Positions 1 through 47,365 of a DNA stretch of 53,432 bases are shown piece after piece. The position numbers and the translations under genes are program-made. Positions within the stretch are counted from its first letter, which is position 1. Every line of letters begins with the position of its first letter. Under the pieces are notes generated by a model. It saw only the letters and a list, made by a program, of their open reading frames with translations. It did not search any database and had not been told where the DNA came from. The stretch is taken from IMG/VR virus record IMGVR_UViG_3300002988_000051, positions 1 to 53,432 of that record; one strand, 5' to 3'. The DNA comes from a virus. Its lineage: Duplodnaviria; Caudoviricetes.

Positions 1-1116
1 TCAACGCGATCTCGATAGGGCATCGGCGGCGCTCCTCAAGTGGTCGGGGGATAGGTGGGAATAGAGCTCGCTCGTCTGGGCGTAAGTGTGGCCGAGCCAT
101 TCGGCGATGCGGAACATGTCGACTCCCGCTTGGGCGAGCCATGATCCGCACGTATGGCGTAGGGTGTGCGGAGTCACGTCGGAAAGACGCGCCCGGCGGC
201 ATGCGTTCGCGAAGCCCTTCTTGATGTCCCCAACCGGGGCCAACCCAGCGGCGCGGATTCTGTTCGCTTGCTCTTCCGTCAACTCGATAACCCACGGCGT
301 TTTTGCCGTCGACTTGGCTGCTTTCATCGCGTCGAGCAACGGATCGGCGATCGGGATCGTCGCCTTTCCCTTCGTCGTTTTCCGTTCTCCAGGCGCTCGT
401 AGGTAGATCAGTTTGCTCGCGAAATCGACCTGAACCCAACGCAGCGACAGAACGGCTTGCTTCCGCGCGCCCGTGTAAAGCGCGACGATCACGAACAGGC
501 GAAGGTAGGGTTCTCGGCACTCCGCGATCAGCGCGTCGGCCTCATCGCGCGTCAACCAGCGTTCACGTTTTGCCGGAGATCCAGGAAGTTTGATCACAGG
601 CGAATGCGTCAGATAGCCGTTCTCGACGCTCCACCTCAATGCGGCGCGCAATGTGGCAAGTTCGAGTCGGATCGTCGTGTCGGTCAGAACAGAATAAACC
701 GCCGGGGCGTCTTTCGTGGCGGGACTGATCGTCCGCGTTCCACGCCCTGTGTCGCGCCGCCATTTCACGTAGGCGTTCAGCGTTTCAGGGGTGATATCGG
801 AAACGAGGCGACTTCCGAAAAAATCCAACAAGAACACGGCGGCTTGGGCCGAACGTCCGCCGCTTTTCAGGTTGGCGGCGTGGTGCTCAAGCCACGTCGC
901 CAAGGCTACCGAGACGGGAAGGGAATCAGGGGATTGGAGGCGTCCGGTTCCATTCTCCTTTTGCCGTTCGCCGAGCCAGCGCGCGAAGAATGCTTCAGCA
1001 TCATCGCGATCTCGCGTGCCCGCGCTAACCCGGCAGTCGCGGCTTCCGTCGTGGTGGACGATGTACCAGACGCCGCCGCGTTGCGAGAGGCGAGGGGGCT
1101 TTCTTGGGCGTGGCAT
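1..1116 (-). CDS. int: Tyrosine recombinase / phage integrase
   Basis: Catalytic motifs YTGARK (R), HTLRH (HxxR), LGH and terminal Y (TSELYSH); N-terminal arm-binding-like segment. Confidence 0.95.
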   Translation of the reverse strand: MPRPRKPPRLSQRGGVWYIVHHDGSRDCRVSAGTRDRDDAEAFFARWLGERQKENGTGRLQSPDSLPVSVALATWLEHHAANLKSGGRSAQAAVFLLDFFGSRLVSDITPETLNAYVKWRRDTGRGTRTISPATKDAPAVYSVLTDTTIRLELATLRAALRWSVENGYLTHSPVIKLPGSPAKRERWLTRDEADALIAECREPYLRLFVIVALYTGARKQAVLSLRWVQVDFASKLIYLRAPGERKTTKGKATIPIADPLLDAMKAAKSTAKTPWVIELTEEQANRIRAAGLAPVGDIKKGFANACRRARLSDVTPHTLRHTCGSWLAQAGVDMFRIAEWLGHTYAQTSELYSHLSPDHLRSAADALSRSR

Positions 1117-2905: not shown

Positions 2906-3461
2906 TCCCGCCTCCCTGTTCCGAGAGGGGAAGAATTTGACCAGATCTCCGACGGACCATGAGGAGGAAAGGGAGAACCATCGCCGTCATCCCCATTTTC
3001 CCGACAATCTGCCCGGACATCATGTCTACGGACCCGAATGCCAATAAAAGGAAGACCGCGCTATCAATCACTGATCCGACCAAGTTGGATACCACCACAG
3101 CGGGGATTAGTCGGCGTCGTTGAAGCGGCGTGTAGACCAGAAGGTCGGCCATCTCTCCCAGCAAGAACGCCGCGACCGATGCCCCGACTTGGGACGGCGG
3201 GGAATAGAGACCGGACAGCGCCCCGCCGATCAAGATTGCCGCGACTGTCCATCGCTCGCCCAGTGCGTGCTGGACAAAATCGCGCAAGAGCAAGGCCGAT
3301 CCCACCATTAGGACCCCGGACGGTGCCATAAACCCAAAACCGACCGGGATTAGACACGGACCGTCCGGGACGCAAATGGTCCCTACATTCCCGATCATCC
3401 AATTAGCCGCCGGGATGGTAAGCGCGAAAGCAGTTAGAGCCGCGACTCCGATGGTGTTCAT
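2898..3461 (-). CDS. VUT family (YhhQ-like) queuosine-precursor transporter
   Basis: Multi-pass membrane protein with AANW, G...LLRDFVQ..LG, ASVAAFLLGEMADLLVYTPL, SNLVGSVIDSAVFLLLAFG and GQIVGK motifs. Confidence 0.85.
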   Translation of the reverse strand: MNTIGVAALTAFALTIPAANWMIGNVGTICVPDGPCLIPVGFGFMAPSGVLMVGSALLLRDFVQHALGERWTVAAILIGGALSGLYSPPSQVGASVAAFLLGEMADLLVYTPLQRRRLIPAVVVSNLVGSVIDSAVFLLLAFGSVDMMSGQIVGKMGMTAMVLPFLLMVRRRSGQILPLSEQGGGNE

Positions 3462-4147
3462 GCCGCGTCCTCAAACAAAGGGGCCTGCGTCCCTCGAAGT
3501 TTCCACAAAAGCGGACATTGCACCGCGTCAATAACGCGAGCCATGTATTCGGGGTGGTCGTCGCCGTTCTTGAAGTTTCGCGCGACGTTGACGGAATCAG
3601 CTGAAGCGAAGGGCCACCGCTTCCCAGATAGGGCGAGACCTCGCAGCACGTGAACCCACGGCAATGTCTTGTGGCGCTTGGCGATGGCGTTGAACGCCTC
3701 GTCGGCCCTGCGTTCCCATGATTCACTTCCGACTTGCCAGTAAGTGCCGGAACTGCCGAAGCACACGCGCGGCCATTGGTCGGCGAGGTCAAGCAGATAA
3801 TCCACCGGCAATCCCATGTGCCAGACCGGCGCTCCTAACGCGCGATCGAACGGCCATGCCGCGACAAGAGCGCGCTGTTGCTCCACGTCGCCGTCGATGA
3901 TGTCGGGGATAACCGCCCAATTCGGGTGTCCAAGGCGCGGCTCGATCCAGCGGTAATAGGCAGACCAATTCACCGTTCGCTCCTTTGTGTACGCCGTGAA
4001 TGCACCGGAATCCCACATGACCGACTGCCCGATTCTCAAGCATGTATCGGCATCTCCGGGGTTGGCGAAGGACACACAAAAGCATTTGCCCGCCATGGTC
4101 AGAAGCGCATCGCGCGGAGTCAATGGAGTGCCGTGGTAGTGAATCAT
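3458..4147 (-). CDS. DpdA-like TGT-fold 7-deazaguanine DNA transglycosylase
   Basis: Ordered TGT/DpdA motifs WDSGAFT, VIPDIIDG, APVWH, CFGSSG, WVHVLRG and SADS; ATGA-coupled to the VUT gene; start ATG 4147 (MIHYHGTP). Confidence 0.75.
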   Translation of the reverse strand: MIHYHGTPLTPRDALLTMAGKCFCVSFANPGDADTCLRIGQSVMWDSGAFTAYTKERTVNWSAYYRWIEPRLGHPNWAVIPDIIDGDVEQQRALVAAWPFDRALGAPVWHMGLPVDYLLDLADQWPRVCFGSSGTYWQVGSESWERRADEAFNAIAKRHKTLPWVHVLRGLALSGKRWPFASADSVNVARNFKNGDDHPEYMARVIDAVQCPLLWKLRGTQAPLFEDAA

Positions 4148-4302
4148 TCTCGCCCTCCCCGTTCCGGGAGGGGAAGGGAGCGGATCGCGGCGGCGTAACT
4201 CATGCCACACGTGTTCCCGTGTTCGTGACGCCTGACGAGGCGCCCGGGCAAGATCGTCTCGACGTTCTCCGCGAGATCGAGGAGTTCAGTCTTGTTCATC
4301 AT
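4144..4302 (-). CDS. 52-aa hypothetical protein
   Basis: MMNKTELLDLAENVETIL...; stop overlaps the dpdA-like ATG. Confidence 0.5.
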   Translation of the reverse strand: MMNKTELLDLAENVETILPGRLVRRHEHGNTCGMSYAAAIRSLPLPERGGRE

Positions 4303-10327: not shown

Positions 10328-10816
10328 TCACTCCTTGGGGGAGTCGAGCGCGGCGCCGAGCGCCTTTACCAGTTCGAACGCCTTTTTGCGAACGTTGGGA
10401 TCGGTGATCCGGTAGTAGGCGCGAACCATCTCCAGCGTCTCGCGCTTGGCCATGGGATCCGGCTCGTAGGCGGGCGCGACCCGCTCCGCTTCACCCCCCT
10501 CGTCGTCGTAGACGCGGGCGGTCGCCGCCTCTTCCGGCATGTCATCGAAGAAAAAGGAAACCGGAACGTCGAGGATGGTGGACAGGATCCAGAGCTTCGA
10601 CGCGGAGACGCGATTGGCGCCGCGCTCGTATTTTTGAACTTGCTGGAAGGTCAAGTTGATCGCCTCGCCCAGCTTCTCCTGGCTCATACCCAAAAGCGTG
10701 CGGCGAAGGCGGATCCGAGAACCGACATGCGCGTCGATCGGATTGGGGATGTCGAGCTTCGGACGTCCGACCCGGCGCTCGGGCGAAGTGGTGGCGGAAA
10801 CGCCGATGGCGTTCAT
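10328..10816 (-). CDS. XRE-family regulator resembling alphaproteobacterial PraR/PhrR
   Basis: PNPIDAHVGSRIRLRRTLLGMSQEKLGEAINLTFQQVQKYERGANRVSAS...VPVSFFFD and KRETLEMVRAYYRITDPNVRK; GGAG RBS before ATG 10816. Confidence 0.88.
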   Translation of the reverse strand: MNAIGVSATTSPERRVGRPKLDIPNPIDAHVGSRIRLRRTLLGMSQEKLGEAINLTFQQVQKYERGANRVSASKLWILSTILDVPVSFFFDDMPEEAATARVYDDEGGEAERVAPAYEPDPMAKRETLEMVRAYYRITDPNVRKKAFELVKALGAALDSPKE

Positions 10817-10838
10817 GTCTCGTACTCCATTTTCGCGG

Positions 10839-11352
10839 TGGTGGTTCGGGGTGCCGGGCCTCTCACCCGACTTGGCGTTCTTACGGATCACTGACCGTGC
10901 CTCCAGTGGTTCGCCGATTAGCTCCATGCCGGCTGATCGGGCCGGTGCCACGGCTGGATGCGGGAGGCCCCGCTCCTCTGCTTCGTTGACCCGAAGGCCG
11001 AATGGGCGCCCCGCTCTCACGCGGCGGGGCTTACGCCACCCGTCAACGCCATTTCCCTGCAACGGTGGACGCAAGTTCTCTACCAGTGGCGCTGCGCCGG
11101 ATCTCGGCTACTCGATCACCTCGCCGCGATACAGGGTCTTTCCCTCCCGGTCCGGCCCAACTCTCCGAAAACCGATCAACGGGTGGATCGCCTTGAACTC
11201 ATGCCCTTACGGGCGTGTCGCTTCCGCTGTCGCGTAACCGGTCCGCGGATGACCTGTTCCCGTCGCGACTTGGGCCTTCGGTTGGATCGGCTCCATCCCT
11301 TCGGCGTGCTCCATGCCGTATCCGGCAAGGCCGAATGCACCGAACTCGAAAC
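10839..11352 (-). ncRNA. Candidate large structured RNA in the early-left transcript
   Basis: ~510 nt without a credible ORF in an otherwise tightly coupled operon. Contains GNRA and cUUCGg hairpins, a T-arm-like hairpin, complementary ends and two 11-nt internal repeats. Confidence 0.5.
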
Positions 11353-12614: not shown

Positions 12615-12630
12615 CCCCTCCATTCCCCGA

Positions 12631-12709: not shown

Positions 12710-12765
12710 ATATTCTCGCTATAACGAGAGTATGTCAATCGGAAAAATCTCGGCATAGCGAGAAT
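12710..12765 (-). promoter_or_regulatory. PL promoter with two repressor operators
   Basis: TTGACA (12738-12733)-N17-GAATAT (12715-12710); operators ATTCTCG-N6-CGAGAGT (12712-12731) and AATCTCG-N6-CGAGAAT (12746-12765). Confidence 0.8.
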
Positions 12766-12839
12766 GCTCGCGGAAGGCGTTCATGGCACCCTACCTGGGT
12801 TGCATCGATCTCGGTGCGTGCTCGGGTATGGAGGGGGTG

Positions 12840-13649
12840 ATGGGCGGTCGACGATGGACTCGCGTTGCCATTGTCGTTTTGGTGTTTGGTGTGACGCCTT
12901 TAAGCGCAACCCGCGCGTTTGAATTCAGGCACGGAGAAAGGATAATATCTATTAGAGACGTGCCTGGGTTTTGTGAAATTTCTGACGCAGATATAAGTAA
13001 AAAACTTAAGCGAAATATTCGTTCTGATGACAAAAATTTCTATTATATTGGTGGGGCATCTGTGTGCAGTGGCGCTGGTTCTGAGAACGGCGATAGGTAT
13101 TTGCTGTTTTTTGAATATAAGAACGGACAACTGGATGACGGCGGGCAATTTGATGTTTCTAGCAAAAATTATCTAGACGCCGTCAATGAAAGTTTCGTAT
13201 CTCCATTTGTCAATGGAGTAAAGTCTAAGAATAAAGGAGCAGATATAAATATTAGTTCGGACATATACAAGACAAAAAATCTCAATATTACGGATTTTTC
13301 TTTTGACTCGACGTCAGTATCTGGAACTGTTTCGACGTTATGCGCATGTCTGTATTCTTACAGCCTTCCGGGCGGCGTTGTTAGTTCGTTTTTATTTGGG
13401 AAATGTGATGGGGTCGATATTGAAAAGCTATCAAGGAGTGTTGTTGGGTCAATCACTCTAGGCAAGATTTCAATTGATAAGGAATACCGGCGACCAACTG
13501 CGATAGAAAATTCCGCTTCCAGCGCAAGACATTCTGTGTATGGAAAGGCGATTATTGGAGGATTTACGGGAGGGTTCTTTATGGTAATTATAATTATATT
13601 ACGCGTCGCAAGAACGATCTATAGAAAATACAAGCGAATTCCGTTCTGA
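12840..13649 (+). CDS. AT-rich exported protein with C-terminal membrane anchor (cargo)
   Basis: Signal-peptide-like N-terminus, several Cys, C-terminal TM followed by a basic tail; strongly AT-rich versus the flanks. Confidence 0.8.
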   Translation: MGGRRWTRVAIVVLVFGVTPLSATRAFEFRHGERIISIRDVPGFCEISDADISKKLKRNIRSDDKNFYYIGGASVCSGAGSENGDRYLLFFEYKNGQLDDGGQFDVSSKNYLDAVNESFVSPFVNGVKSKNKGADINISSDIYKTKNLNITDFSFDSTSVSGTVSTLCACLYSYSLPGGVVSSFLFGKCDGVDIEKLSRSVVGSITLGKISIDKEYRRPTAIENSASSARHSVYGKAIIGGFTGGFFMVIIIILRVARTIYRKYKRIPF

Positions 13650-14673: not shown

Positions 14674-14928
14674 TCAGATCCCGGCGGCTTTACGCAGCGT
14701 CTCGTCGATCCGGCTTTGCCAGCCGGGGCCGGAGGCCTTGAAATGCTCGACGACATCGCGGCTCAGACGGATGGAAACGGGTATCTTGGTCGGTATCTTT
14801 TGCGGGCCGCGCGTGCGGGGAAACGCCGCCAAAATCGCGGGCGGCAGTTCGCTCGCGGGCTTTGACCGACGAAAGTCATCATCGACCCACTCCGGGTTCT
14901 CCGCGTCGATCTTCGGTTCATCCGACAT
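14674..14928 (-). CDS. brnA: BrnA family antitoxin
   Basis: DAENPEW.DDDF, RGPQKIPTKIPVSIRLSRDVVEHFKASGPGWQSRIDETLR. Confidence 0.92.
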   Translation of the reverse strand: MSDEPKIDAENPEWVDDDFRRSKPASELPPAILAAFPRTRGPQKIPTKIPVSIRLSRDVVEHFKASGPGWQSRIDETLRKAAGI

Positions 14929-15175
14929 GGCGTTCGATCTCCCTTCGATGCGCTCTCCGCAAACTGATGGCTCTGACCCGACCGTCACGATGGGTGAAGG
15001 CCAGACAGTGATGGACGCCGGCGATCACGCCCCACGCCCGGTATCGAGTTTCGCCGTAATCCGTTCGATCGTCCTCGACGAAGGCCAAGATTTCGAGATC
15101 GACGGCCCGCGCCAGGGAAACGCCGTGTTTGGCGATGTTGGCCGCGTCTTTGGCGGGGTCGAATTCGATGTCCAT
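14918..15175 (-). CDS. brnT: BrnT family ribonuclease toxin
   Basis: IEFDPAKDAANIAKHGVSL, DYGETRYRAWG, RAISLRRA..RE; probably leaderless (TTGATC-N17-TATACA just upstream). Confidence 0.92.
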   Translation of the reverse strand: MDIEFDPAKDAANIAKHGVSLARAVDLEILAFVEDDRTDYGETRYRAWGVIAGVHHCLAFTHRDGRVRAISLRRAHRREIERHVG

Positions 15176-15653
15176 GAGAATTGTATATACGATAAAGCCG
15201 GATAGATCAAGCGGGTCGTCCCGGCGTCGCGCGCCGCGCATACCGGATTATGCGCGCCCGCGTTGTGTTACAAAAACGGAATACGCGCCGGTATTGACTC
15301 GATAGCTCAAGAGTCGTAGCGTTTTGGAGCCGCCCCGGAGACGGGCGCGGCGCGCTTGGGATCCTCTGTCCAAAGATTCCCCCAGGCACACAAGACACGC
15401 GAGGAGCCACCTCACGGCCCGATCGGCACGGAGAGGCGAACCCCCGCGATCCTCCGATCCAACGCCCGCCAACCCGCGGGTCAGAAGGAGTATGTGTGCC
15501 GTGGCCTTAAAATTTCATTCCGCTAATAGTTTTCGCGACGAAATTCGAAGCATCGGACGGCATATGCGTAACGCATGATGCCGGCGAGTTTCCATGCGCT
15601 CAACTCGCGCCGACGGTTCGACCGCGCGCGACCCGTTGCCGCAATTCCAACAC

Positions 15654-15700
15654 TTGTGGGACCAGAGTCCCAGGTGTAGGCTTGTGTTCATGAAACGTTC
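15654..15700 (+). promoter_or_regulatory. Sigma70-like promoter with alphaproteobacterial LexA (SOS) box
   Basis: TTGTGG (15654-59)-N17-TAGGCT (15677-82); GTTC-ATGAAAC-GTTC at 15686-15700 over the expected start site. Confidence 0.7.
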
Positions 15701-15715
15701 TCGGCAGAGGCCAGC

Positions 15716-15889
15716 ATGTTAAGCGAGCGCGCGTCACAGGAAATTGACAATCATGACCAAATAGACATCGATCCAGCGCTTCGTTCTTTGTGGGAACGCC
15801 TGACGCCGGCTCGAAAACTTGCGGCGTTGAAAGGCTTTGAGAAGATTGTCAAGTCTGATGGTCAGACAGGCTTTGAACAAGCAGGCTGA
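15716..15889 (+). CDS. 57-aa putative SOS-induced antirepressor (not in ORF track)
   Basis: GAGG RBS; MLSERASQEIDNHDQIDIDPALRSLWERLTPARKLAALKGFEKIVKSDGQTGFEQAG; lies behind the LexA box and resembles the repressor C-terminus. Confidence 0.65.
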   Translation: MLSERASQEIDNHDQIDIDPALRSLWERLTPARKLAALKGFEKIVKSDGQTGFEQAG

Positions 15890-16220
15890 TCGCCTCTCTC
15901 TTTTGTTCTACGGTCATGCGGTTGAATATTTTATCAGCCATCACGTCAAGTTCGGGCGTGGGGGCATCGCGACCAATTATTTCGTCGATCGTTACAGGGC
16001 GACCAAGCAGCCGTGACGCTCCGTCGGCCAGATTTTCGAGGGTTCCAATTTTGATGTTCGGAACCTTCGCCCCAGTCAACGCTTCATTCACGGAATTGTA
16101 GGAAACTCCTGACTCTTTAGTCCACACGTTGGGGTTCTTGAGGCCAAGATCTCGGTTGGCCTCGTAGAAGGCTTTCAGCCCGGCGATACGTCGCGCAAGT
16201 TCCTCAGCTTCCGTGGACAT
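15849..16220 (-). CDS. Prophage repressor (123 aa, XRE-like HTH, no S24 peptidase domain)
   Basis: Divergent from cro across three operators; HTH-like WTKESGVSYNSVNEALTG..PNIKIGTLENLA; GGAG RBS. Confidence 0.78.
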   Translation of the reverse strand: MSTEAEELARRIAGLKAFYEANRDLGLKNPNVWTKESGVSYNSVNEALTGAKVPNIKIGTLENLADGASRLLGRPVTIDEIIGRDAPTPELDVMADKIFNRMTVEQKREAISLLVQSLSDHQT

Positions 16221-16237
16221 GGGGCTATTCTCCCCAT

Positions 16238-16308
16238 TTCTCGCTTCAGCGAAATCTCGGTGTAATGAGATGTTCGCGCTTGACGAATTCTCGTTACAGC
16301 GAGAATAT
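16238..16308 (+). promoter_or_regulatory. OR operators and PR promoter
   Basis: TTCTCG-N6-CGAAAT (16238-55), ATCTCG-N6-TGAGAT (16254-71), perfect ATTCTCG-N6-CGAGAAT (16287-306); TTGACG (16280-85)-N17-GAATAT (16303-08). Confidence 0.82.
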
Positions 16309-16313
16309 GCGGC

Positions 16314-16526
16314 ATGACCATCAGTTCCGAAATCGCTCATCTGCGGGCGCTCCTCAACGCTCGTGGTGTGAAAATCGACCGCATCGCCAAGAAAGCGGGG
16401 CTGTCCTGGTGTGCGGTAAAGGCCGTTGCCGACGGTACCGGCGACCCAAAAGGGTCAACGCTTTGCGCGATCGAAAGCGCAATGGACGCCGACCCTCCCT
16501 CCTCCACCGAGGAGAGGGCGGCATGA
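16314..16526 (+). CDS. Cro-like HTH regulator
   Basis: IDRIAKKAGLSWCAVKAVADGTGDPKGSTLCAIE HTH; first gene after PR, apparently leaderless. Confidence 0.8.
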   Translation: MTISSEIAHLRALLNARGVKIDRIAKKAGLSWCAVKAVADGTGDPKGSTLCAIESAMDADPPSSTEERAA

Positions 16527-22797: not shown

Positions 22798-24060
22798 ATG
22801 GCCCGCATCCGTTCCATTTTTCCCGGCCAATGGACCGACGAGGATTTTGTCGAGTGCTCGGCGACGGCTCGCCTACTCGCGTTGGCTCTCCGAAATGAGT
22901 CCGACGACCAGGGTGTTTTCGAATGGAAGCCGGTCGGACTGAAGATGCGGCTGATGCCCGCCGACGGCGCCGACATCAACGAGTTGCTGGACGAGTTGGT
23001 CGAGCATCGGCAGATCATGCGGTACGAGATTGGAGGGCGCGTCTACGGCGCGATCCGCAATTTCATGGTCTGGCAGCGTCCGAAGAAACCGCGCGCGCTG
23101 CATCCCACCACACCCGAGGTTCTGAACTGGGTCGGAAAAGGCCGACGCTCACCGGACGGCGGTTCGGAACCGGCGGACGATGATCCACCCCGAGGTTCCG
23201 GACCGGTACGGAACGAGAGGGGGAATGAAAGGCTGCCCGTTCCCCACCGGGCCGGAACCGACAACGCTTCATCCGCGACGAATTCGGAACCCGTTCCGAA
23301 CGGGTGTGGAACTCGCGCCGCTTCACCATCGCCAAGTTCCGAACCGGTCCCGAACCAGTTCGGAATTCACTCCGCGGATAGGAGGAGGGAGGAGGTAGGA
23401 GGTAAGAGGGAAGTAAGTTCAAGATCCGGCGCGGCGGCGGCTTTCACGCGCGCTCGCGCGTCCACGCGCGACGGCCCGCCGCCGCCCGAGGATGATCGGG
23501 ATTTGGATTCCGGCGTCCAGGCCGCCGTCTCGACCGTGAAAACGGCGGTTTCCAAGGCGTTCGAGACTTGGTTCGATCTTCCAGATCGCCCGATCTCCCC
23601 CAGCGACGAGGAGCTTTTCGCCGCGTGGATCGCCGAGGGAACGGGTCGCGGAGTGAGCGCGGACGCCGTCGCTCGGGCCGCCGCCGAGGAGGTCGACCGG
23701 CAGTTCCGGCGGATGTCCGAGCGCAAGCCCGACGACCCGCCGCGCCGCCTTTCCGCCGTCCTCGACGAGGACGTGCGCCGGGCCGTCGCTCAAGCCGCCG
23801 CGACGCGATCGGCGAGACCGTCGTCCCCGCCCGTCGTCGTCCCCTCCCCTTGGGCCGAGAGGTTCGACGCGACCACGTACCGGACCTGGATCGCTCCGAT
23901 CGTCGACGAGATCGTGGTCGACGAGGGCAAGGCGGTGATCACCGTGCCAAACATACTTTCCCGAGACTGGATCGGAGGGAGGTTCGAGGCCGACATCCGC
24001 CACTGTCTCGGCGTGAACGAGATCGAGGTCGTCGTCGCGAAAGCCGTGGAGGCCGCGTGA
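22798..24060 (+). CDS. Replication initiator with C-terminal DnaA domain-I-like module
   Basis: MARIRSIFP..WTDEDF...DDQG.F replisome-organiser N-terminus; internal iterons; C-terminal TYRTWIAP...ITVPNILSRDWI..RF like DnaA_N. Confidence 0.8.
   Translation: MARIRSIFPGQWTDEDFVECSATARLLALALRNESDDQGVFEWKPVGLKMRLMPADGADINELLDELVEHRQIMRYEIGGRVYGAIRNFMVWQRPKKPRALHPTTPEVLNWVGKGRRSPDGGSEPADDDPPRGSGPVRNERGNERLPVPHRAGTDNASSATNSEPVPNGCGTRAASPSPSSEPVPNQFGIHSADRRREEVGGKREVSSRSGAAAAFTRARASTRDGPPPPEDDRDLDSGVQAAVSTVKTAVSKAFETWFDLPDRPISPSDEELFAAWIAEGTGRGVSADAVARAAAEEVDRQFRRMSERKPDDPPRRLSAVLDEDVRRAVAQAAATRSARPSSPPVVVPSPWAERFDATTYRTWIAPIVDEIVVDEGKAVITVPNILSRDWIGGRFEADIRHCLGVNEIEVVVAKAVEAA
23162..23368. repeat. 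11-bp iterons (consensus GTTCSGAACCG), probable replication origin
   Basis: Units at 23162, 23195, 23206, 23239, 23250, 23282, 23293, 23304, 23336, 23347 and 23358 inside the initiator gene. Confidence 0.72.
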
Positions 24061-39325: not shown

Positions 39326-39619
39326 TCAGTCCTCCAGTTGTTCCGCCATCACCTTGGCGGTTTCGATGTCCCGATCCTGGGTCCGCTTATCGCCGCCGCA
39401 CAGCAGGATCACCACCACGTCACCTCGTCGAACGAAGTAGACGCGATACCCCGGACCGTGATCGACCCGCAGTTCGCCGATACCGCCGAAGAACTTGGCG
39501 TCACCGAACAACCCGGCTTGAAGGCGAACGACGCGTTGGGCGATCCGCTCCCGCGCCCGACCATCCCGTAGGCCGTCGAGCCAGTCACGAAACACGGCGG
39601 TTTGGCGAACTTCGAACAT
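39326..39619 (-). CDS. RelE/HigB-like addiction module toxin
   Basis: F.DWLDGLRD...GLFGDAK..GGIGELRVDHGPGYRVYF...LLCGGDK.TQDRDI. Confidence 0.92.
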   Translation of the reverse strand: MFEVRQTAVFRDWLDGLRDGRARERIAQRVVRLQAGLFGDAKFFGGIGELRVDHGPGYRVYFVRRGDVVVILLCGGDKRTQDRDIETAKVMAEQLED

Positions 39620-39626
39620 GGTGTGA

Positions 39627-39655
39627 ATTGTAGGTTACAACCGGCCCGGCGTCAA
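39627..39655 (-). promoter_or_regulatory. TA operon promoter with palindromic operator
   Basis: TTGACG-N17-TACAAT, ATG 7 nt later (leaderless); TTGTA-N3-TACAA palindrome at 39628-39640. Confidence 0.7.
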
Positions 39656-39676
39656 CGACGCGGGGCCTTTTCTTTT
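39643..39676 (+). terminator. Terminator-like hairpin ahead of the giant ejection gene
   Basis: GGCCCGGCGTC-AAC-GACGCGGGGCC-TTTTCTTTT. Confidence 0.6.
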
Positions 39677-39685
39677 GGAGCGAAC

Positions 39686-42600
39686 ATGACCGACTTCGCC
39701 GAATCCTTCTCTCGGTATCTGGACAAGCCCGCGACCGACGAAAAGGGCGCCGGAGACGCCGACGCTCAAGGCGGTTTCGCCGGGTCGTTCCGGGCGTTTC
39801 TCGACGAACGCGACGCCGAGGCGGAATCCGCCGCGAAGGCGAACCTGTATTCCGCGATGGGAACCAACCCGGATCAGGCGGCGAAGGCGGCGACGCTGGG
39901 AAAGCGCTTCGGCCTTTCGACGGACACGGTTCTCGCCGATCTCGGCAACGTCGAGCGGCGCGCGGTGCTGGAGGATCGCGACCGGGTTCTTCAGCGGTCC
40001 CCGACGTTGCGTTCGTGGCTCGCCTCCAACCCCGACGCGGCGAAACTCGTCCACGACGATCTTTCCACGACGGCGGGAGTCGCCGCCGCCGTCGATCGTT
40101 ACAACGAGGCGAACAGTCTTCCCGCGCGCGCCGCTCAGCGCCTCGGGTCGGGTTGGGCGGCGATGCGCGGCGAGCAGGATGTCCGCGGCGCGGTCATGGC
40201 GGGCGACGCGCTGAACGCGTTCGACGCGATCGACAATGGGGAGACGCCGAACGCTCTCCGGTCCCGGCTCTACGGCGAGAACGCCAAACGCCACCAGATG
40301 CTGATCGATGATCTGACCGACCAGTATTTCGGCGAGACGCCGGAAGGCCGCGCGGACATGCGGAAATCCCATCAGGACGTGTTCGACAAGAACCTGGACT
40401 CCGCCGCCGCGCGTGAGGACGAGGTGGAGGCCGCGCCGCGCAATCCCGCCGCGTCCGCCGCGATGGAGAAGGCGGGCAAGGGCGACTTCGGGGACGCGTG
40501 GGGCGCTTTCATGACCGACCCTCTGGGCGTGATCGGGCAGATCGGCATGGAATCGTTGCCGCGCGCGCTGCCCGGAATGGCCGCCGGTGTCGTCGCCGGA
40601 CCGGCGGCGGGAATGGGCGCCGGATCGTTCGTGAGCGAGTACGGCGCCCGCTTTTTGTCGGCGATGAAGGCCGAGGGCCTCGACCTGAAGAAGCCGGAGA
40701 CGCGGGCGCTTCTGCGCGATCCCGAGATCAGGAAGCGGGCGAGCGAGAAGGCCGCGACCGGCGCCGCCGTCGTCGCGGCGTTCGACGCCATGAGCGGCGG
40801 GATGGCGGGGGAGAAACTGCTGTCCGGCGCGCGGGCCGGGGCGTCGGCGGTTCGCGAGATCGCGCGCGAGGGCGCGGAGATCGCGGCGCAGTTCGGGATG
40901 CAAGCCTCTCTCGGCATGGCCGGAGAAGCCGGGGCCGAGACCGCGACCGGCGAGAAACTTCAATGGGGGCAGATCCTCGCGGAGGGCCTTGGCGAAGGCT
41001 TCGGCGCTCCCGGAGAGATGCTGTCCGCCGCCGGGAATCACGCGTTTACCCGCGCCGAACCCGTCGTCCGTCGCGCGGGAGAGGCGGAGCGCGCCAAGGT
41101 CGCGGCGGAACATATGGACGCGGCGGTTGAGGGCGTGGTGTCGTCGAAGTTGATGGAACGATCCCCCGAAGCCGCGGCGAGTCTGTTGCGGTCGCAGACC
41201 GAGGGAACCCAATCGGAGAACGTGTTCATTCCCGCGCGCGAGGCTCAAGCCTATTTCCAATCCGCCGGGGTGACGCCGGACGCGCTCGATACCATGGTTC
41301 CCGGCTTGTCCGGCCAGATCCGCGAGGCCGCGCCGATCGGGGCCGACGTGGTGATCCCGACCGCCGATTACCTGACCAGACTCGCCCCCGAGCACCATCA
41401 AGGGCTGCGCGAGGATATCCGCTCGACGGAGGGCGGAATGACCTTGCGCGAGGCGAATGATTTCGACCCGCGAAAGGCGATCGAGGAAGCCGCGTCGTCG
41501 GCTGAGGCGGATGTCGATTCGGCGTCGGCCCGAGAGACGGCGCGAGCGACGATCGCCGACGACGTGGCGAAGAGGCTCTCCGACGGCGGGTGGGTCGCGC
41601 CCGAGACGGCCAAGACCCAGGCGGAAATCATCGCCTCGTTCTTCACCACGACGGCGGAGCGGGCGGGCGTGGACCCGGAGGAGCTTTACCGGAGCGTCAA
41701 CTTCGACGTGACCCGCTCCATTCCCGACGTTCTCCGCGGAGCGGGCGAGGGTGTGCCTCCGGCGTTGTCGAAGGCGTTGGAGGATCTGCGGCGCGGGACC
41801 GGCCAAAAGTCCGACAAGACGCTGTTCGGACCGTCGCTCCTGCAATTCGTCGCCGATCGGGGTGGCGTGATCGACGAGGGCGGGGATCTTCATTCCCAAG
41901 GCGTCGACCGCTACCACGAGGGAAAGCCGTTTCAGCGGAAGGTGGTGCGGAACGACGACGGCGTTCCCCTCGACGAGATGACGCGCAAGGCGTGGGAGGC
42001 GGGATATTTCCCGGAGAGCGGCGACGAGCGCCCGACGATCAACGACCTGCGCGCGGCGATGATCGACGAGAACAACGGACGCCCGCGTTATGTGACCGAG
42101 TCCGCCGATGTCGACGCGGCGGGGCATCGCGCGGCGGTGGAGGATCTCGCCCGGACGCTCGACGAGATCGGCATAGATCCGGCCAAGCATTCCGACGCGG
42201 AGATCGTCGCGGCGTTGCGCAAGGCGGCGGACGAGGGTTCGACGATCGCGGAACAGGCGCTGGTCTACGATCAGGCCGCGCGTGATCCCATCGCGAAGGT
42301 GCTGACGGGTGATGAGGTCGCTCCCGCCGGCGAGCCGATCGAATCGCTTCGCTCGAAAGCTCGCGCGCTCATGAGGGGTTGGGTGAGTGGCGGGAAGAGC
42401 GCGGAGATCGTCAACGCCGACACCGGCATGAGGATCGGGTTTGACCGGAAGTCATTCGAGAAGGCCCCGGCGAAGATCGGTGAACGACTCCTCCGCGTCA
42501 TCCCGGCCATTCCCGACATGTTGCGCTCCGGGCATCTTTTGTCGACCGAGCCGGGAAACCGCGATGGTGTCGCGAAGCTCCACAAATTCACGTCGGCGGT

Positions 42601-45600
42601 CGACTTGGCCGGGCAACGCGTTGATGTCGTTCTTCACGTTCATGAGAAGAACAACGGGGAACGCTTCTACTCGTTGCATGACGATCGCGGGACGGTGGGT
42701 CGCCTTGGTGCGGTCCCCGGCGTCGCCTCCGGTGGGGAGGCGGTGGACCCCCTTGGAGTGGGTGACCGTCCCGCGTCGGGAATGATACCCGAAACCGAGG
42801 ACGGCGGCAACTCGTTCGACCAAAAGCGCGACACCGACGACACGCCGGAGGATCGCGTCCGATCGGTGTTGGACGCGGCGGCGATGCCCGGAAACGCGTC
42901 GTCGAAGACGGCGATCGGCGTTGTCGGTCCCTGGCTTGTCGATATGGCGCGAGAAAAACTCGGGGTCGACATCACCGGCTACCGGCATGTGATTGACACG
43001 TCGGCGGTGAAGCACATCCGAAACCGGCATGGAGCCGAGGCGGCGGAGCGGGCTCGAGGTCAAATCCCGCTGACCGACGAGGATATCGCTCATATCCCCG
43101 ACCTGCTGTCCTCTCCCGACAAGGTGGTGTTCGGCACGAAGAACCGGCTTGGACACGATCAAATTGCGTTCGTGAAGACGCTGCCGGACGGATCGACGCT
43201 GTATTTGGAGGAGGTCCGCACCGGGCGCCGAGAACTCGCGGCCATGTCGATGCGAAAGTATCCCGCCACGATGAATGTCGAGGCCGTGGCCGCGACCCTC
43301 GATCCCAACGCCCGAGGCGATGGCGAGAATGGGTTGAGTATAATCGACGCGCCGCGCGATCCCAACATGACTTTCAGCCAAATCGGCGGCGGCGACGACC
43401 CGCGCGGGCGCATCACCTTCAAGCCCGGCCCCGACGGGCGGACCGAGAAGGCGATCATCACCCTGTTCTCGAAGGCCGACCTCTCGACCGTGATGCACGA
43501 GGCCGGGCATCTGTTCTTGCAGATCACGGCGGATCTGCACGCGGCGGAGGGTGAGCGTCTACCCGACCAGATGCGCGCCGATTGGGCCGTCACCCTGGAT
43601 TTCCTGGGGGCCAAGCCCGGCGAGAAGCTAACGACCGAACAGCACGAGACGTTCGCCCGCGCGTGGGAGGAGTATCTTCGCGAGGGCAAGGCCCCGTCGA
43701 AGGGTCTGCGCCGGGTGTTCGAACACGCGTGGGCGTGGCTGCGGGCGGTTTACAAGGGGACGCCGGTCGAGGGGATCAGCACGGAGATGCGCGGCGTCTT
43801 CGATCGGATGATCGCGGCGGATGACGAGATCGCGGCGGCGGCGCGGGAAACCGGTCTCGTCGATCACCTCGCGAAATACAAGGGCGTCGCCACCGACGCC
43901 GAGCTTGAGGCGCTGGCCCGCGCCGCCGACGAGGCCCGCATCGAGGCCAAGGCCCGCGTCATGTCGGCGGCGGTGAAGGAGGCGGAACGCGAGAAAGCCG
44001 CGTGGTGGAAGGAGGCGCGCGCGGCGCTGCGGACCGACGTGGCGCTTGAAATCTCGGATCGTCCGGAATACGCCGCGCTCACGGCGATCACCAAGGGAAC
44101 GTACCCCGACGGCTCGCCCTTCCCGGCGCCGATCAAGCTGTCCCGCGCCGCCGCGGCCAAGCGGACGGCGCTGAAGTCCCTGCCGCGCGGCGTGACGGCG
44201 GAGGACGGCGTTCACCCGGACATCGCCGCCGAGATGCTGGGCTTCTCCAGCGGCGACGAGTTGCTTCAAGCCCTGTCCGCGATCAAGGACAAGCCGCTCA
44301 AGGAGGTGGTCGACGCGGAGACCGATCGGCGCATGGCTGAGACTTACGGCGACATGCGGACGGACGGGACACTTCATGCCCGCGCGCTGGAAGCGATGCG
44401 GGACGAGGAAGCCGGGAAGGTTGTTGCGGCGGAACTCCGGATCCTCCGCCGCGCCGAGGGCGAACGTCTGCGGAAGCTGGCCGAGCGCAAGGCGCAAACC
44501 GAAGGTGGCAAGAAGGCGGCGGAGTATCGCGATGGCGTCGATGGAGCCGACGAGCGCGCGGCCATGGGTGAAGACCCGTCCGCGCTCGACGGCGCGACGG
44601 CTCGGGCGGACGCGAAAGCCGGGGCGGATCAGCGTCGGGCGCAGTCGGCGGCGGTGCGGTCGACCCTCGCCGCGTTTGAGGTCGACGCCGACGCGGCCCG
44701 GCAGATCGCGATCCGGTCGCTTTCAACCAAGCCACTCAAGACCGTCTCCCCCGATCGGTACGAGGCTGCGGCGAACCGGGCGTCCGACCGCGCCGCGCTC
44801 GCCGTCGCGAAACGGGATTACGCCGCCGCCGCCCTGGCGAAACGCGATCAGTTGATCAACCACTTCATGGCGATCGAGGCGCGCAAGCTGAAACAGGAGG
44901 CCGAGAAAGTCGATGACTTCGTTCGGACGTTGAGGAAGTCAAACGACAAGTGGGCGAAGACCCACAACATCGACTTCGTGAACGCGGCGCGCGCGTTGGC
45001 CGCGCGGCACGGGTATCACTTTCCTGATGGGCTGAATCTCGAACAATGGGGCGCGTCGCTCCGCGAGTTCTACCCGGACCGGGCCGACGAGATCGCGGAC
45101 CATCTTTCCGCCGCCATAGCCCCGGAACCTCTGCGCCCGTCGGAGATGACCATCGGCGACCTGCGCGCCTTCCACGAGGGAATCATCGGCCTCCTCCATT
45201 ACGGACGGAAAGAGAGGGAGGCGTTTCTGGAGGGGCGCAAAGCCGATTTCGAGGCCAAACGAACCGAACTCGTCACGGCGATCGAGGCGGAGAACGAGGA
45301 GATCAAAACATCGATCAACCCATCGGCGGACGGTCCGGCGGCGAAGGCGATGGACCAATTGTCGAGTTTTCTGGCCTTGAACACGAAGGCGCGCACCTAC
45401 GCCGAACGCATGGGCGGGCGCGGCGGGATCGGCGATCGCCTCCTCACCGAGGCGGTTCGAGACGCGGAGCTGACGCGCGACCGGAGGAAGGCGGTCGAGG
45501 CGGAAATCGCGGCGCGCATCCTGGAGGAGAGTTACGGGGAGGAGGCGCGGAACGGAAACCTCTATTCCCCGAAGTCGCGCGTCAAGATCTCCGGAACGAA

Positions 45601-47365
45601 CGAGTCGTTGACGCTCCAGGAACGCCTCGCGATCGGCCTCAATTGGGGCAACGAGGAGAACCGCGCCGCGCTGCTGAACGACAAGTTCCGCCGCGATAAA
45701 AAGGGGTTCACCCCCGACGCCTATGACGCCGTTCTGGCGACGTTGGAACGACGCGATTGGGAGTTCATCCAGAAGGTATGGGATCACCTTGAAGCCTTCC
45801 GTCCCGAGTTGGCGGCGCTGGAGCGCGAGGACAAGGGCTTCGAGCCGCGCTGGATCGAGCCGGCACCGTTCACCGTCCGTTTCGCGAACGGCGAAACGCT
45901 GGAGATGCGCGGCGGGTATTACCCGCTGAAATACGACCCCGAACTCTCGAGCGATGTGCGCGAGAACACGGCGGAGGAGGAGGCGCGGGCCTTCGCCGCC
46001 GGTCATTGGGGATCGGCGACGACGCGGGCCGGACACGTCAAGGCTCGCGTCGGTTCGAACGGGAAGCCGGTCAAGTGGTCGTTGAATGTTTGGGAACAGC
46101 ATCTCGGGCGCGTCGTGACCGACATCACCATGCGACGCTCCGTTCGCGGGGTGTGGCGGATGCTGAACGACCACAAGGTCAAGGCCGCGATCGAGACTCG
46201 GATGGGAAAGGACGCGTGGCGTCAACTCGACTTGTGGATCAAGGATGTCGCGGTCGCGGAGCAACGGAATTCCGACGCGATGAGTTCCGTTCTGAATCGC
46301 TTTCGTTCCTCCGTCACCGTCGGGGCGATGGCGCTGAAGGCGACCACCGTCATCACCCAAGTCTCCGGCTTCTCCCACACCATGGTGGAACTGGGAAAGG
46401 CCCGGACGTTGCGCGCCGTCGGCGAGTACCTCGCGAATCCGATCGCGGCGGCGCGGTGGGTCCGCGAGGCGTCGCCCTTCATGGCGTCGCGCGCCGGAGG
46501 AGACCTGAACCGCGACATGCGCGACGTGATCGCCCGCGCTCGAGGGCATGGGTGGCGGGCGGACGCCGTGACCGTCATGTTCTACCCGATCGCCAAGGCT
46601 CAGGCGGTGGTCGACATCCCGACGTGGATCGGCGCCTTTCGCAAGGCCGAGGAGGAGGGCAAGGATCGCGCGACGGCGGTTCGTTACGCCGACTCCGCAG
46701 TCGAGGCGGCGCAAGGCGGAAGCCAAGCGTCGATGCTGTCGGCGTTTGAACGCGGAACCATGGGCGAAACGACGCGCCTCAACGACTGGATCAAGGTCTG
46801 GGGAGCGTTCATCTCGTACTTCAACACCAAGTTCAACATCGCGCGGCGAAAGTGGGAGGGGACGGATTTCAGATCGCCCGCCCAAATCGCCTCTCTCGCC
46901 GGTGACTATCTCGCCCTGTTCTGGCTCGATACGCTGATCGCCGACACGCTCAAAAACGCCCCCTCCCTCTTGTTCGGAAATGGCGGCGACGATGACGACG
47001 ACAAAGGCGTCGCGTCGCGGATCGCCAAATCCGGATGGTCCGCCGTTCAAACGGCGATGGGCATGTTGCCGTTCCTGCGCGAGTTGGCGGGTACGATGGA
47101 GGGCTTCGGCGCGGCTCCGGCGGCTTCTCGTGGAATCGCCAATCTGGGGAACGCGCTCGGCGCGGTCGGTCGAACGGCGTCCGACCTCGCGTTCGGCGAG
47201 GACGTGAGATGGATGCGCCTTGTTCGCGCGATCAACCAGGCCATACCACTCGCGATCCCGTGGCCGTCCGGCCAAGTGGATGCGGCTCTCGCGGCCCAGG
47301 AGCGTGCGAACAAGGGCGAAGACGTTCCCTTGGTCGATTACTTGATCAAACCGGCGAAGAAGTGA
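39686..47365 (+). CDS. 2559-aa polyvalent internal virion/ejection protein (gp16 position)
   Basis: GGAG RBS; Gly/Ala membrane-like stretch; two inserted BECR-like modules (~42300-42680 and ~42900-43260); HEAGH motif at 43496-43510. Confidence 0.82.
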   Translation: MTDFAESFSRYLDKPATDEKGAGDADAQGGFAGSFRAFLDERDAEAESAAKANLYSAMGTNPDQAAKAATLGKRFGLSTDTVLADLGNVERRAVLEDRDRVLQRSPTLRSWLASNPDAAKLVHDDLSTTAGVAAAVDRYNEANSLPARAAQRLGSGWAAMRGEQDVRGAVMAGDALNAFDAIDNGETPNALRSRLYGENAKRHQMLIDDLTDQYFGETPEGRADMRKSHQDVFDKNLDSAAAREDEVEAAPRNPAASAAMEKAGKGDFGDAWGAFMTDPLGVIGQIGMESLPRALPGMAAGVVAGPAAGMGAGSFVSEYGARFLSAMKAEGLDLKKPETRALLRDPEIRKRASEKAATGAAVVAAFDAMSGGMAGEKLLSGARAGASAVREIAREGAEIAAQFGMQASLGMAGEAGAETATGEKLQWGQILAEGLGEGFGAPGEMLSAAGNHAFTRAEPVVRRAGEAERAKVAAEHMDAAVEGVVSSKLMERSPEAAASLLRSQTEGTQSENVFIPAREAQAYFQSAGVTPDALDTMVPGLSGQIREAAPIGADVVIPTADYLTRLAPEHHQGLREDIRSTEGGMTLREANDFDPRKAIEEAASSAEADVDSASARETARATIADDVAKRLSDGGWVAPETAKTQAEIIASFFTTTAERAGVDPEELYRSVNFDVTRSIPDVLRGAGEGVPPALSKALEDLRRGTGQKSDKTLFGPSLLQFVADRGGVIDEGGDLHSQGVDRYHEGKPFQRKVVRNDDGVPLDEMTRKAWEAGYFPESGDERPTINDLRAAMIDENNGRPRYVTESADVDAAGHRAAVEDLARTLDEIGIDPAKHSDAEIVAALRKAADEGSTIAEQALVYDQAARDPIAKVLTGDEVAPAGEPIESLRSKARALMRGWVSGGKSAEIVNADTGMRIGFDRKSFEKAPAKIGERLLRVIPAIPDMLRSGHLLSTEPGNRDGVAKLHKFTSAVDLAGQRVDVVLHVHEKNNGERFYSLHDDRGTVGRLGAVPGVASGGEAVDPLGVGDRPASGMIPETEDGGNSFDQKRDTDDTPEDRVRSVLDAAAMPGNASSKTAIGVVGPWLVDMAREKLGVDITGYRHVIDTSAVKHIRNRHGAEAAERARGQIPLTDEDIAHIPDLLSSPDKVVFGTKNRLGHDQIAFVKTLPDGSTLYLEEVRTGRRELAAMSMRKYPATMNVEAVAATLDPNARGDGENGLSIIDAPRDPNMTFSQIGGGDDPRGRITFKPGPDGRTEKAIITLFSKADLSTVMHEAGHLFLQITADLHAAEGERLPDQMRADWAVTLDFLGAKPGEKLTTEQHETFARAWEEYLREGKAPSKGLRRVFEHAWAWLRAVYKGTPVEGISTEMRGVFDRMIAADDEIAAAARETGLVDHLAKYKGVATDAELEALARAADEARIEAKARVMSAAVKEAEREKAAWWKEARAALRTDVALEISDRPEYAALTAITKGTYPDGSPFPAPIKLSRAAAAKRTALKSLPRGVTAEDGVHPDIAAEMLGFSSGDELLQALSAIKDKPLKEVVDAETDRRMAETYGDMRTDGTLHARALEAMRDEEAGKVVAAELRILRRAEGERLRKLAERKAQTEGGKKAAEYRDGVDGADERAAMGEDPSALDGATARADAKAGADQRRAQSAAVRSTLAAFEVDADAARQIAIRSLSTKPLKTVSPDRYEAAANRASDRAALAVAKRDYAAAALAKRDQLINHFMAIEARKLKQEAEKVDDFVRTLRKSNDKWAKTHNIDFVNAARALAARHGYHFPDGLNLEQWGASLREFYPDRADEIADHLSAAIAPEPLRPSEMTIGDLRAFHEGIIGLLHYGRKEREAFLEGRKADFEAKRTELVTAIEAENEEIKTSINPSADGPAAKAMDQLSSFLALNTKARTYAERMGGRGGIGDRLLTEAVRDAELTRDRRKAVEAEIAARILEESYGEEARNGNLYSPKSRVKISGTNESLTLQERLAIGLNWGNEENRAALLNDKFRRDKKGFTPDAYDAVLATLERRDWEFIQKVWDHLEAFRPELAALEREDKGFEPRWIEPAPFTVRFANGETLEMRGGYYPLKYDPELSSDVRENTAEEEARAFAAGHWGSATTRAGHVKARVGSNGKPVKWSLNVWEQHLGRVVTDITMRRSVRGVWRMLNDHKVKAAIETRMGKDAWRQLDLWIKDVAVAEQRNSDAMSSVLNRFRSSVTVGAMALKATTVITQVSGFSHTMVELGKARTLRAVGEYLANPIAAARWVREASPFMASRAGGDLNRDMRDVIARARGHGWRADAVTVMFYPIAKAQAVVDIPTWIGAFRKAEEEGKDRATAVRYADSAVEAAQGGSQASMLSAFERGTMGETTRLNDWIKVWGAFISYFNTKFNIARRKWEGTDFRSPAQIASLAGDYLALFWLDTLIADTLKNAPSLLFGNGGDDDDDKGVASRIAKSGWSAVQTAMGMLPFLRELAGTMEGFGAAPAASRGIANLGNALGAVGRTASDLAFGEDVRWMRLVRAINQAIPLAIPWPSGQVDAALAAQERANKGEDVPLVDYLIKPAKK

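Follow-up and report, generated by a model that had tools for sequence, protein, structure and literature searches.

Many prophage repressors carry no self-cleavage domain, and what triggers induction of such prophages is mostly unknown. How a repressor of this kind might be made to respond to DNA damage is the question raised by the immunity region of a provirus record of 53,432 bp, complete and with 64.6% G+C (IMG/VR entry IMGVR_UViG_3300002988_000051), the whole of which constitutes the window analyzed here. Convergent on the gene for a 123-aa repressor lies a 57-aa open reading frame (ORF), designated ORF57, which is preceded by a direct repeat of the form GTTC-N7-GTTC. A first-pass annotation of this DNA had proposed that ORF57 is freed from LexA control during the SOS response and inactivates the repressor by mimicking its C-terminal domain, in the manner of SinI. 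Our analysis indicates that ORF57 is very probably a conserved, functional feature of the immunity region, and it is probably a real small gene, previously uncalled in this record and wired to the SOS response. With a probability of roughly 55%, it works as a decoy antirepressor of the SinI/AimX type under host LexA control.

Conservation of the convergent ORF and its upstream box

Scans with repressor alignments recovered loci L001 to L004 from viral contigs and L006 from a metagenome, which together with the window make six distinct loci; a further locus, L007, is identical to L006 over the 1,600 bases compared. In all six, a small ORF of 57-69 aa is convergent on the repressor gene and overlaps its 3' end by 29-128 nt, and the divergent arrangement with a cro-like gene is common to all relatives, at a repressor identity across loci of only ~34%. 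For the window, reading of the sequence confirmed the ribosome-binding site and the 41-nt overlap described in the first-pass annotation (Table 1), and purine-rich runs of the GAGG/GGGG type also lie 5' of the chosen starts in the five other loci. As proteins, ORF57 and the L001 small ORF align locally with a score of 51, compared with 21.8 ± 4.4 for shuffled sequences (p <= 0.0005), and the similarity is found only in the ORF frame (48 vs <= 25 for the other 35 frame pairs).

A query with ORF57 returned no candidate from the called-protein collection, ORF57 itself included. A profile search of called proteins recovered the exact L001 protein from 15 contigs, along with a form nearly identical to the L003 protein, both with starts that agree with ours, and gene callers elsewhere therefore accept these ORFs. 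Other searches added nothing: no relatives were obtained with the repressor alone or a two-sequence alignment against viral and genome contigs, with repressor alignment A4 against metagenome contigs, with small-ORF alignment A7 against viral contigs, or by tblastn of the repressor against phages and plasmids; A4 against viral contigs gave only the L001 contig again, and megablast of 24 kb of the phage against phages gave no match. In L003, the small ORF lies 3' of a 146-aa gene on the same strand, with a perfect hairpin (11-bp stem) and then a ribosome site between the two.

The GTTC-N7-GTTC repeat ahead of ORF57 is exact, as first reported, and the same motif is listed as the SOS (LexA) box of Caulobacter crescentus in Table 1 of PMC9578287, in line with its assignment to an alphaproteobacterial LexA. 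An exact copy is present <= 100 nt upstream of the small ORF in four of the six loci, where 0.021 would be expected from the background rate over 198,706 strand positions (Poisson P ~8e-9). It lies on the coding strand 30 nt (window), 43 nt (L001) and 58 nt (L004) before the start and directly before the start in L006, and in L001, L004 and L006 a TTGNNN hexamer is found 2-5 nt before it. The 7-nt spacers vary between loci, as do the operator-like repeats that lie between the repressor gene and its cro-like neighbor. That the box is constant while the phage operators change suggests a shared, conserved host protein. Three additional copies at 23287-23355 (- strand) lie inside the replication-initiator gene (22798-24060) and inflate the count for the window; given this location and their iteron-like arrangement, they were rejected as LexA sites.

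By indirect evidence, the host is probably an alphaproteobacterium. At the DNA level, the terminase region resembles five plasmid records, every one of them from Alphaproteobacteria (Rhodovastum, Paracoccus, Methylobacterium, Rhodoplanes and Sphingomonas), the integrase has its best match in Azospirillum, and the window contains no E. coli-type CTGT-N8-ACAG box. Protein searches with the terminase and RecT against phages yielded mixed hosts (Synechococcus, Xanthomonas, Bradyrhizobium, Vibrio, Bordetella and Burkholderia) and are not decisive.

The repeat might instead be bound by a phage activator similar to lambda CII, or by another host factor, in which case the module would not be SOS-wired. 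CII binds direct repeats around a -35, and in L001, L004 and L006 the repeat directly follows TTGNNN, where a class II activator could sit; in addition, the host assignment is indirect and two of the six loci have no box. We nevertheless consider this account improbable. The two tetranucleotides and their 7-nt spacing are unchanged despite the low repressor identity and the differing operators, as one would expect of a conserved host protein more than of a phage protein that co-varies, the motif is the listed Caulobacter SOS box, and the phage relatives detected at the DNA level are alphaproteobacterial.

The repressor tail and the decoy reading

The first-pass annotation described the repressor as lacking an S24 autopeptidase domain, and this holds: neither Pfam nor PHROG yields a match to the protein, which AlphaFold2 models as entirely helical (mean predicted local distance difference test score, pLDDT, 89.4), with helices at residues 4-21, 30-37, 41-49, 58-72 and 78-82 followed by a C-terminal hairpin, leaving no space for an S24 fold. 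An exhaustive profile search among 1.84 billion representative proteins found 24 relatives at E <= 0.001, in which the N-terminal helix and the helix-turn-helix-like core are conserved and the tail is highly variable. Foldseek with the model had no hit at E <= 0.001; XRE-type regulators occupy the top rows, each a weak match (best E 0.036), with SinR from the SinR-SinI complex (1b0n_A) at rank 2 (E 0.057, template modeling scores 0.43/0.50, likewise weak) and a Salmonella phage repressor at rank 8. Atlas neighbors are HTH_3/HTH_31 proteins or are named RacR-like. Because the HTH_3 profile is not matched by the repressor sequence at E <= 0.1, membership in the XRE type is at the level of the fold only, and a PDB profile search with the repressor family gave nothing at E <= 1. 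Exact TCTCG-N6-CGAGA sites occur only three times in the window (12714, 12748 and 16289), all in two divergent early-promoter regions, and two copies with one mismatch accompany the site at 16289. Based on the divergent cro-like gene, the placement of these operators and the XRE-like fold, the 123-aa protein is best read as the immunity repressor.

Two alternative assignments were rejected. A longer, 163-aa repressor ORF (15849-16340) would include an extension of ~40 aa that 13 of 20 aligned members lack and that spans the operator region. The N-terminal 'extensions' do resemble one another, in the window (16221-16340) and in P0003, P0004, P0010, P0015, P0022 and P0024 (for example, SLHRDFAEARN vs SLYRDFAAARN), and this likeness is probably that of conserved operator DNA in translation, not of real protein. 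A 248-aa HTH_3 protein (10328-11074), a candidate for the cleavable repressor proper, is likewise without an S24 domain and is encoded within the leftward early operon.

Comparison of the profile of five small ORFs with that of 20 repressors by hhalign aligned the small ORFs to the repressor tail, in the same register as originally proposed, with a probability of 64% and an E value of 6.6e-5. When each small ORF was compared, ungapped and over 24 residues, with the tail of its cognate repressor, z was 6.0 for L001 and 4.0 for L003 (p 0.0005 for both), 2.4 for L002 (p 0.0235), 2.0 for the window (p 0.041), 1.9 for L004 (p 0.05) and 0.8 for L006 (p 0.23). Over the full 6 x 6 matrix, the mean z was 2.84 when the pair was cognate and 1.30 when it was not, and it fell to -0.62 with reversed own tails. 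When ORFs are assigned to tails in all 720 ways, a total as high as that observed arises just 7 times, a figure that is soft because the six loci are few and non-independent. By this measure the small ORFs co-vary with the repressor tails. The idea that ORF57 mimics the repressor C-terminal domain is partly supported, at the level of the family profile and of cognate preference, and for the pair in the window itself the resemblance is marginal.

In L001, a 23-nt inverted DNA repeat, 74% complementary, links the segments that code for the small ORF and for the tail, which is what inverted duplication or conversion would leave. The predicted structures agree in outline, with a short helix, a turn and a long helix in both the repressor tail and ORF57 (Table 1); the ORF57 model, built from five sequences, reaches a pLDDT of 89 over residues 21-40. 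Complex predictions for the repressor with ORF57 scored 0.28, 0.73 and 0.28 relative to a mark of 0.32, with controls not folded, and speak neither for nor against binding.

The repressors of L002 (4614-5550) and L006 (3043-3622) are near-identical over the first ~86 residues, and their tails are unrelated, as are their small ORFs. This swap implies that tail, small ORF and promoter move as a cassette. On the far side, the flanking DNA of the two loci is homologous again; the box is present in L006 and absent from L002.

In the sequence of events that we infer, LexA would sit on the GTTC-N7-GTTC box at the ORF57 promoter in the lysogen and silence ORF57, and the repressor, having no self-cleaving domain, would occupy both sets of operators, at 12.7 kb and 16.2 kb, in oligomeric form, held together by its C-terminal hairpin. 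After DNA damage, LexA would be cleaved and ORF57 would be made. Its hairpin, putatively copied from the repressor tail in inverted orientation, since diverged and lacking a DNA-binding domain, would then pair with the tail of the repressor, such that oligomers would be broken or prevented and the operators released. Transcription from the ORF57 promoter would also run antisense through the repressor gene and might thereby add interference.

This last step could in principle be the chief one, with the box and overlap serving mainly as an SOS-controlled antisense promoter that lowers the repressor through polymerase collision or RNA pairing, the peptide being dispensable or secondary. Several features agree with such a role: the convergent overlap is kept in all six loci, a + strand terminator between the two genes was not detected, no feature is better conserved than the box, most pairs of small ORFs have no detectable similarity, and aimX of Bacillus phages, to which we return below, was itself first proposed to act antisense (10.1101/2025.11.23.689978, in its accessible portion). 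However, the same portion of that source places the activity of aimX in the ORF and not in antisense RNA. The restriction of window-L001 similarity to the ORF frame, the Shine-Dalgarno-like runs ahead of all six starts and the directional, cognate-preferring resemblance to the tail are likewise not what a role in RNA alone predicts, and we consider that role unlikely.

Several points weigh against ORF57 as a LexA-controlled decoy: (i) Within the window alone, no statistic for ORF57 beats chance, and the feature exceeds chance only because of the comparison with relatives. Codon-position G+C does not favor the ORF57 frame over the antisense frame, and a crude caller based on third-codon-position G+C (GC3) chose an antisense 48-aa ORF over ORF57. 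(ii) The ungapped 28-residue alignment originally given for ORF57 and the repressor tail does exist, with five identities (D, R, T, K and A), but is not significant by itself (BLOSUM62 score 17; p 0.13 with the whole repressor, 0.057 with the tail only), and the resemblance of the window pair is marginal by either measure (z 2.0, p 0.04-0.06). The best local match of ORF57 is to the N-terminal helix of the repressor, not to the tail (BLASTP E 0.011), and the L006 small ORF is unlike its own tail (z 0.8; local alignment p 0.31). (iii) Among the 15 pairs of small ORFs, similarity at p < 0.05 is limited to three (window-L001; L001-L002, p 0.005; L003-L004, p 0.026), the other 12 showing no significant similarity, and the six loci are not independent samples, the window and L001 being kin. 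Joint exchange of tail and small ORF needs no functional link because the two physically overlap. (iv) The sigma70-like promoter of the first-pass annotation can be read as hexamers TTGTGG and TAGGCT separated by 17 nt, but these are weak and a promoter scan reported no + strand site ahead of ORF57. The window contains six GTTC-N7-GTTC repeats vs 3.0 expected, a number reached in 10 of 100 shuffles, the box is absent from L002 and L003 even with one mismatch allowed, and the host taxon rests on inference. (v) ORF57 has no Pfam or PHROG family at E <= 0.1 and Atlas gave nothing usable; the five small ORFs match no Pfam family at E <= 10, and hence no SinI family, and no known antirepressor family in Pfam-A or PHROGs matches ORF57. 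The ORF57 model is of moderate confidence (mean pLDDT 70.8).

The N-terminal match mentioned under (ii) pairs residues 32-41 of ORF57 (ARKLAALKGF, 15806-15835) with residues 9-18 of the repressor (ARRIAGLKAF, 16167-16196), identical at 6 of 10 positions, and adds a second resemblance to that with the tail.

The points under (i), with the ambiguous composition, and the missing Pfam, PHROG and Atlas matches would also suit a chance ORF, that is, a functionless open frame in the 3' flank of the repressor gene. Such a frame would not be expected in six of six loci, with similarity specific to its reading frame and the enrichment of the box given above, and it is very improbable. The reality of the gene and the conservation of the box hold equally if ORF57 is a damage-induced small protein whose target is a host factor or another phage regulator, and the marginal similarity of ORF57 to the tail and the lack of an assigned family or function are in keeping with such a protein. 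We consider a different target unlikely, given that the tail-to-tail position with the repressor gene is strict in all six loci, that cognate preference and the L001 inverted repeat tie ORF57 to the repressor, and that the repressor has no S24 domain and no classical antirepressor was seen among 40 ORFs scanned against PHROGs.

Known modules of similar design

For the decoy reading of ORF57, the AimX-AimC-AimL module of Bacillus arbitrium phages is the closest known system, and the accessible portion of its description, a bioRxiv preprint from 2025 (10.1101/2025.11.23.689978), already contains the same design, so that the design is not the unseen biology for which the first-pass annotation had taken it. 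According to this source, AimC is a short helix-turn-helix repressor (80-140 aa) that lacks an auto-cleavage domain and whose gene diverges from a cro-like one, and AimX is a protein of 29-80 aa encoded on the opposite strand, sometimes overlapping aimC, with a LexA site just upstream of aimX in the phi106 family. AimX was shown experimentally to bind AimC's C-terminal oligomerization domain and to block oligomerization, which the authors liken to SinI-SinR, and the AimX small ORFs are highly divergent, tracking their repressors. The present locus is alike in its short non-cleavable repressor divergent from a cro-like gene and in the small overlapping ORF on the opposite strand, by comparison of descriptions and not of sequences. 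It differs in its apparently alphaproteobacterial host and in its GTTC-N7-GTTC box. AimR/AimP signaling genes are not seen here, and the 474 bp upstream of ORF57, as far as the BrnT/BrnA gene pair, contain no gene recognized in ORF, Pfam and PHROG scans. Here, the small ORF also resembles an inverted paralog of the repressor tail, a point not met for AimX in the accessible portion of that source. The new angles are the putative inverted-paralog origin and the cassette behavior of the induction switch.

SinI-SinR is a chromosomal biofilm switch of Bacillus subtilis, not part of a phage and not known to be controlled by LexA. The likeness lies in an XRE-type repressor with a C-terminal helical hairpin and in a small protein, helical by prediction for ORF57, that is similar to this hairpin and has no DNA-binding domain, whereas the Foldseek match is weak and neither the small ORFs nor the repressor match a Sin domain family. 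Among phage antirepressors, GfoA and GfhA of the Gifsy prophages are small, under direct LexA control and inactivate a non-cleavable repressor (PMC3121763). Coliphage 186 Tum, which appears in the reference list of PMC9437464, belongs to the same LexA-controlled class. The present locus similarly combines a non-cleavable repressor with a small candidate antirepressor gene, apparently under LexA control, but ORF57 overlaps the repressor gene within the immunity region and has no family-level sequence match. We know of no resemblance of the Gifsy and Tum antirepressors to their respective repressors. In vibriophages of the linear plasmid-like type, Qtip and the products of modules consisting of a transcription factor and a small ORF are proteins of ~80 aa that inactivate the phage repressor, and there, according to the accessible portions of the sources, dedicated transcription factors drive the modules independently of DNA damage (PMC10432266, 10.1101/2019.12.16.877910), whereas the driver here is apparently LexA. 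A literature search in which few subscription journals were covered found no description of such a module in alphaproteobacterial phages.

Taken further, the data permit a tentative reading, which we place somewhat short of even odds, in which this lineage of alphaproteobacterial phages would have made its SOS key from an inverted duplicate of the repressor tail, lacking the DNA-binding domain and placed behind a LexA box, tail-to-tail with the repressor gene and across its 3' end. Tail, decoy and promoter would form one exchangeable cassette separate from the DNA-binding domain, arisen independently of AimX-AimC and SinI-SinR, and cassette exchange would give each phage a private pair of repressor and antirepressor. 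If so, the decoy design arose separately in Alphaproteobacteria by inverted duplication of the tail, and exchange of tail and decoy as a unit bears on whether co-resident prophages have separate or shared induction signals. Private pairs would matter in polylysogens such as the source genome with both L002 and L003, two loci that share one genome record. In practical terms, the analysis points to a very small gene missed by standard annotation in a rare family of alphaproteobacterial prophages, with its 24 detectable relatives, and to a simple rule for seeking others, namely a short repressor gene whose 3' end is overlapped by a small convergent ORF, the latter often preceded by the LexA box of the host.

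Layout of the immunity region and the phage record

The gene layout in Table 1 is based on rough GC3-based gene calls combined with Pfam and PHROG scans. ORF57 falls within an immunity region that is flanked by the left and right operators.

Table 1 Positions of the features of the immunity region and its surroundings in the 53,432-bp window.
Feature	Position	Strand	Remarks
Integrase	1-1116	-	Left end of window
Leftward early operon	up to 12623		Includes RecT-like protein, exonucleases and 248-aa HTH_3 protein
Left operator region	12714-12763		Two exact TCTCG-N6-CGAGA sites (12714, 12748), before leftward early operon
288-aa ORF	12783-13649	+	Low-GC island, ~34-44% G+C vs 64.6% overall; within immunity region
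BrnT toxin/BrnA antitoxin pair	14674-15241	-	Pfam E 3e-18 and 2e-20
Possible -35 hexamer TTGTGG (weak)	15654-15659	+	Three of six positions as in TTGACA
Possible -10 hexamer TAGGCT (weak)	15677-15682	+	17 nt past -35; putative
Exact GTTC-N7-GTTC direct repeat, GTTCATGAAACGTTC	15686-15700	+	30 nt before ORF57 ATG; putative LexA box
Shine-Dalgarno-like AGAGG	15706-15710	+	5 nt 5' of ATG
ORF57, 57-aa candidate antirepressor	15716-15889	+	Disordered acidic N-terminus, then predicted helices 20-28 and 31-50
ORF57/repressor gene tail-to-tail overlap	15849-15889		41 nt
Repressor, 123 aa	15849-16220	-	N-terminal helix, XRE-like helix-turn-helix core, C-terminal two-helix hairpin (90-101, 104-122)
Right operator region	16239-16304		Three TCTCG-N6-CGAGA-type sites: 16239 and 16255 (one mismatch each), 16289 (exact)
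Cro-like gene, 70 aa	16314-16526	+	Divergent from repressor gene

The left operators, lying between the start of the leftward operon at 12623 and position 12783, also face the low-GC gene. The product of this gene has no Pfam, PHROG or PADLOC match and may be an accessory protein expressed in the lysogen. The BrnT/BrnA pair is likewise inside the immunity region, between the left operators and ORF57. The cro-like product has weak PHROG matches to transcriptional repressor families (E 0.014-0.074), and rightward of its gene follow a helicase, the replication initiator, the large terminase and structural genes. Nothing was found when the window was scanned with Rfam and for tRNAs. The tail region includes a single ORF of 2,587 aa (39602-47365, + strand). 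In the early operon, the protein encoded at 3458-4210 (- strand) matches a PHROG queuine tRNA-ribosyltransferase (E 2.5e-43) and may be a DpdA-like DNA-modification enzyme.

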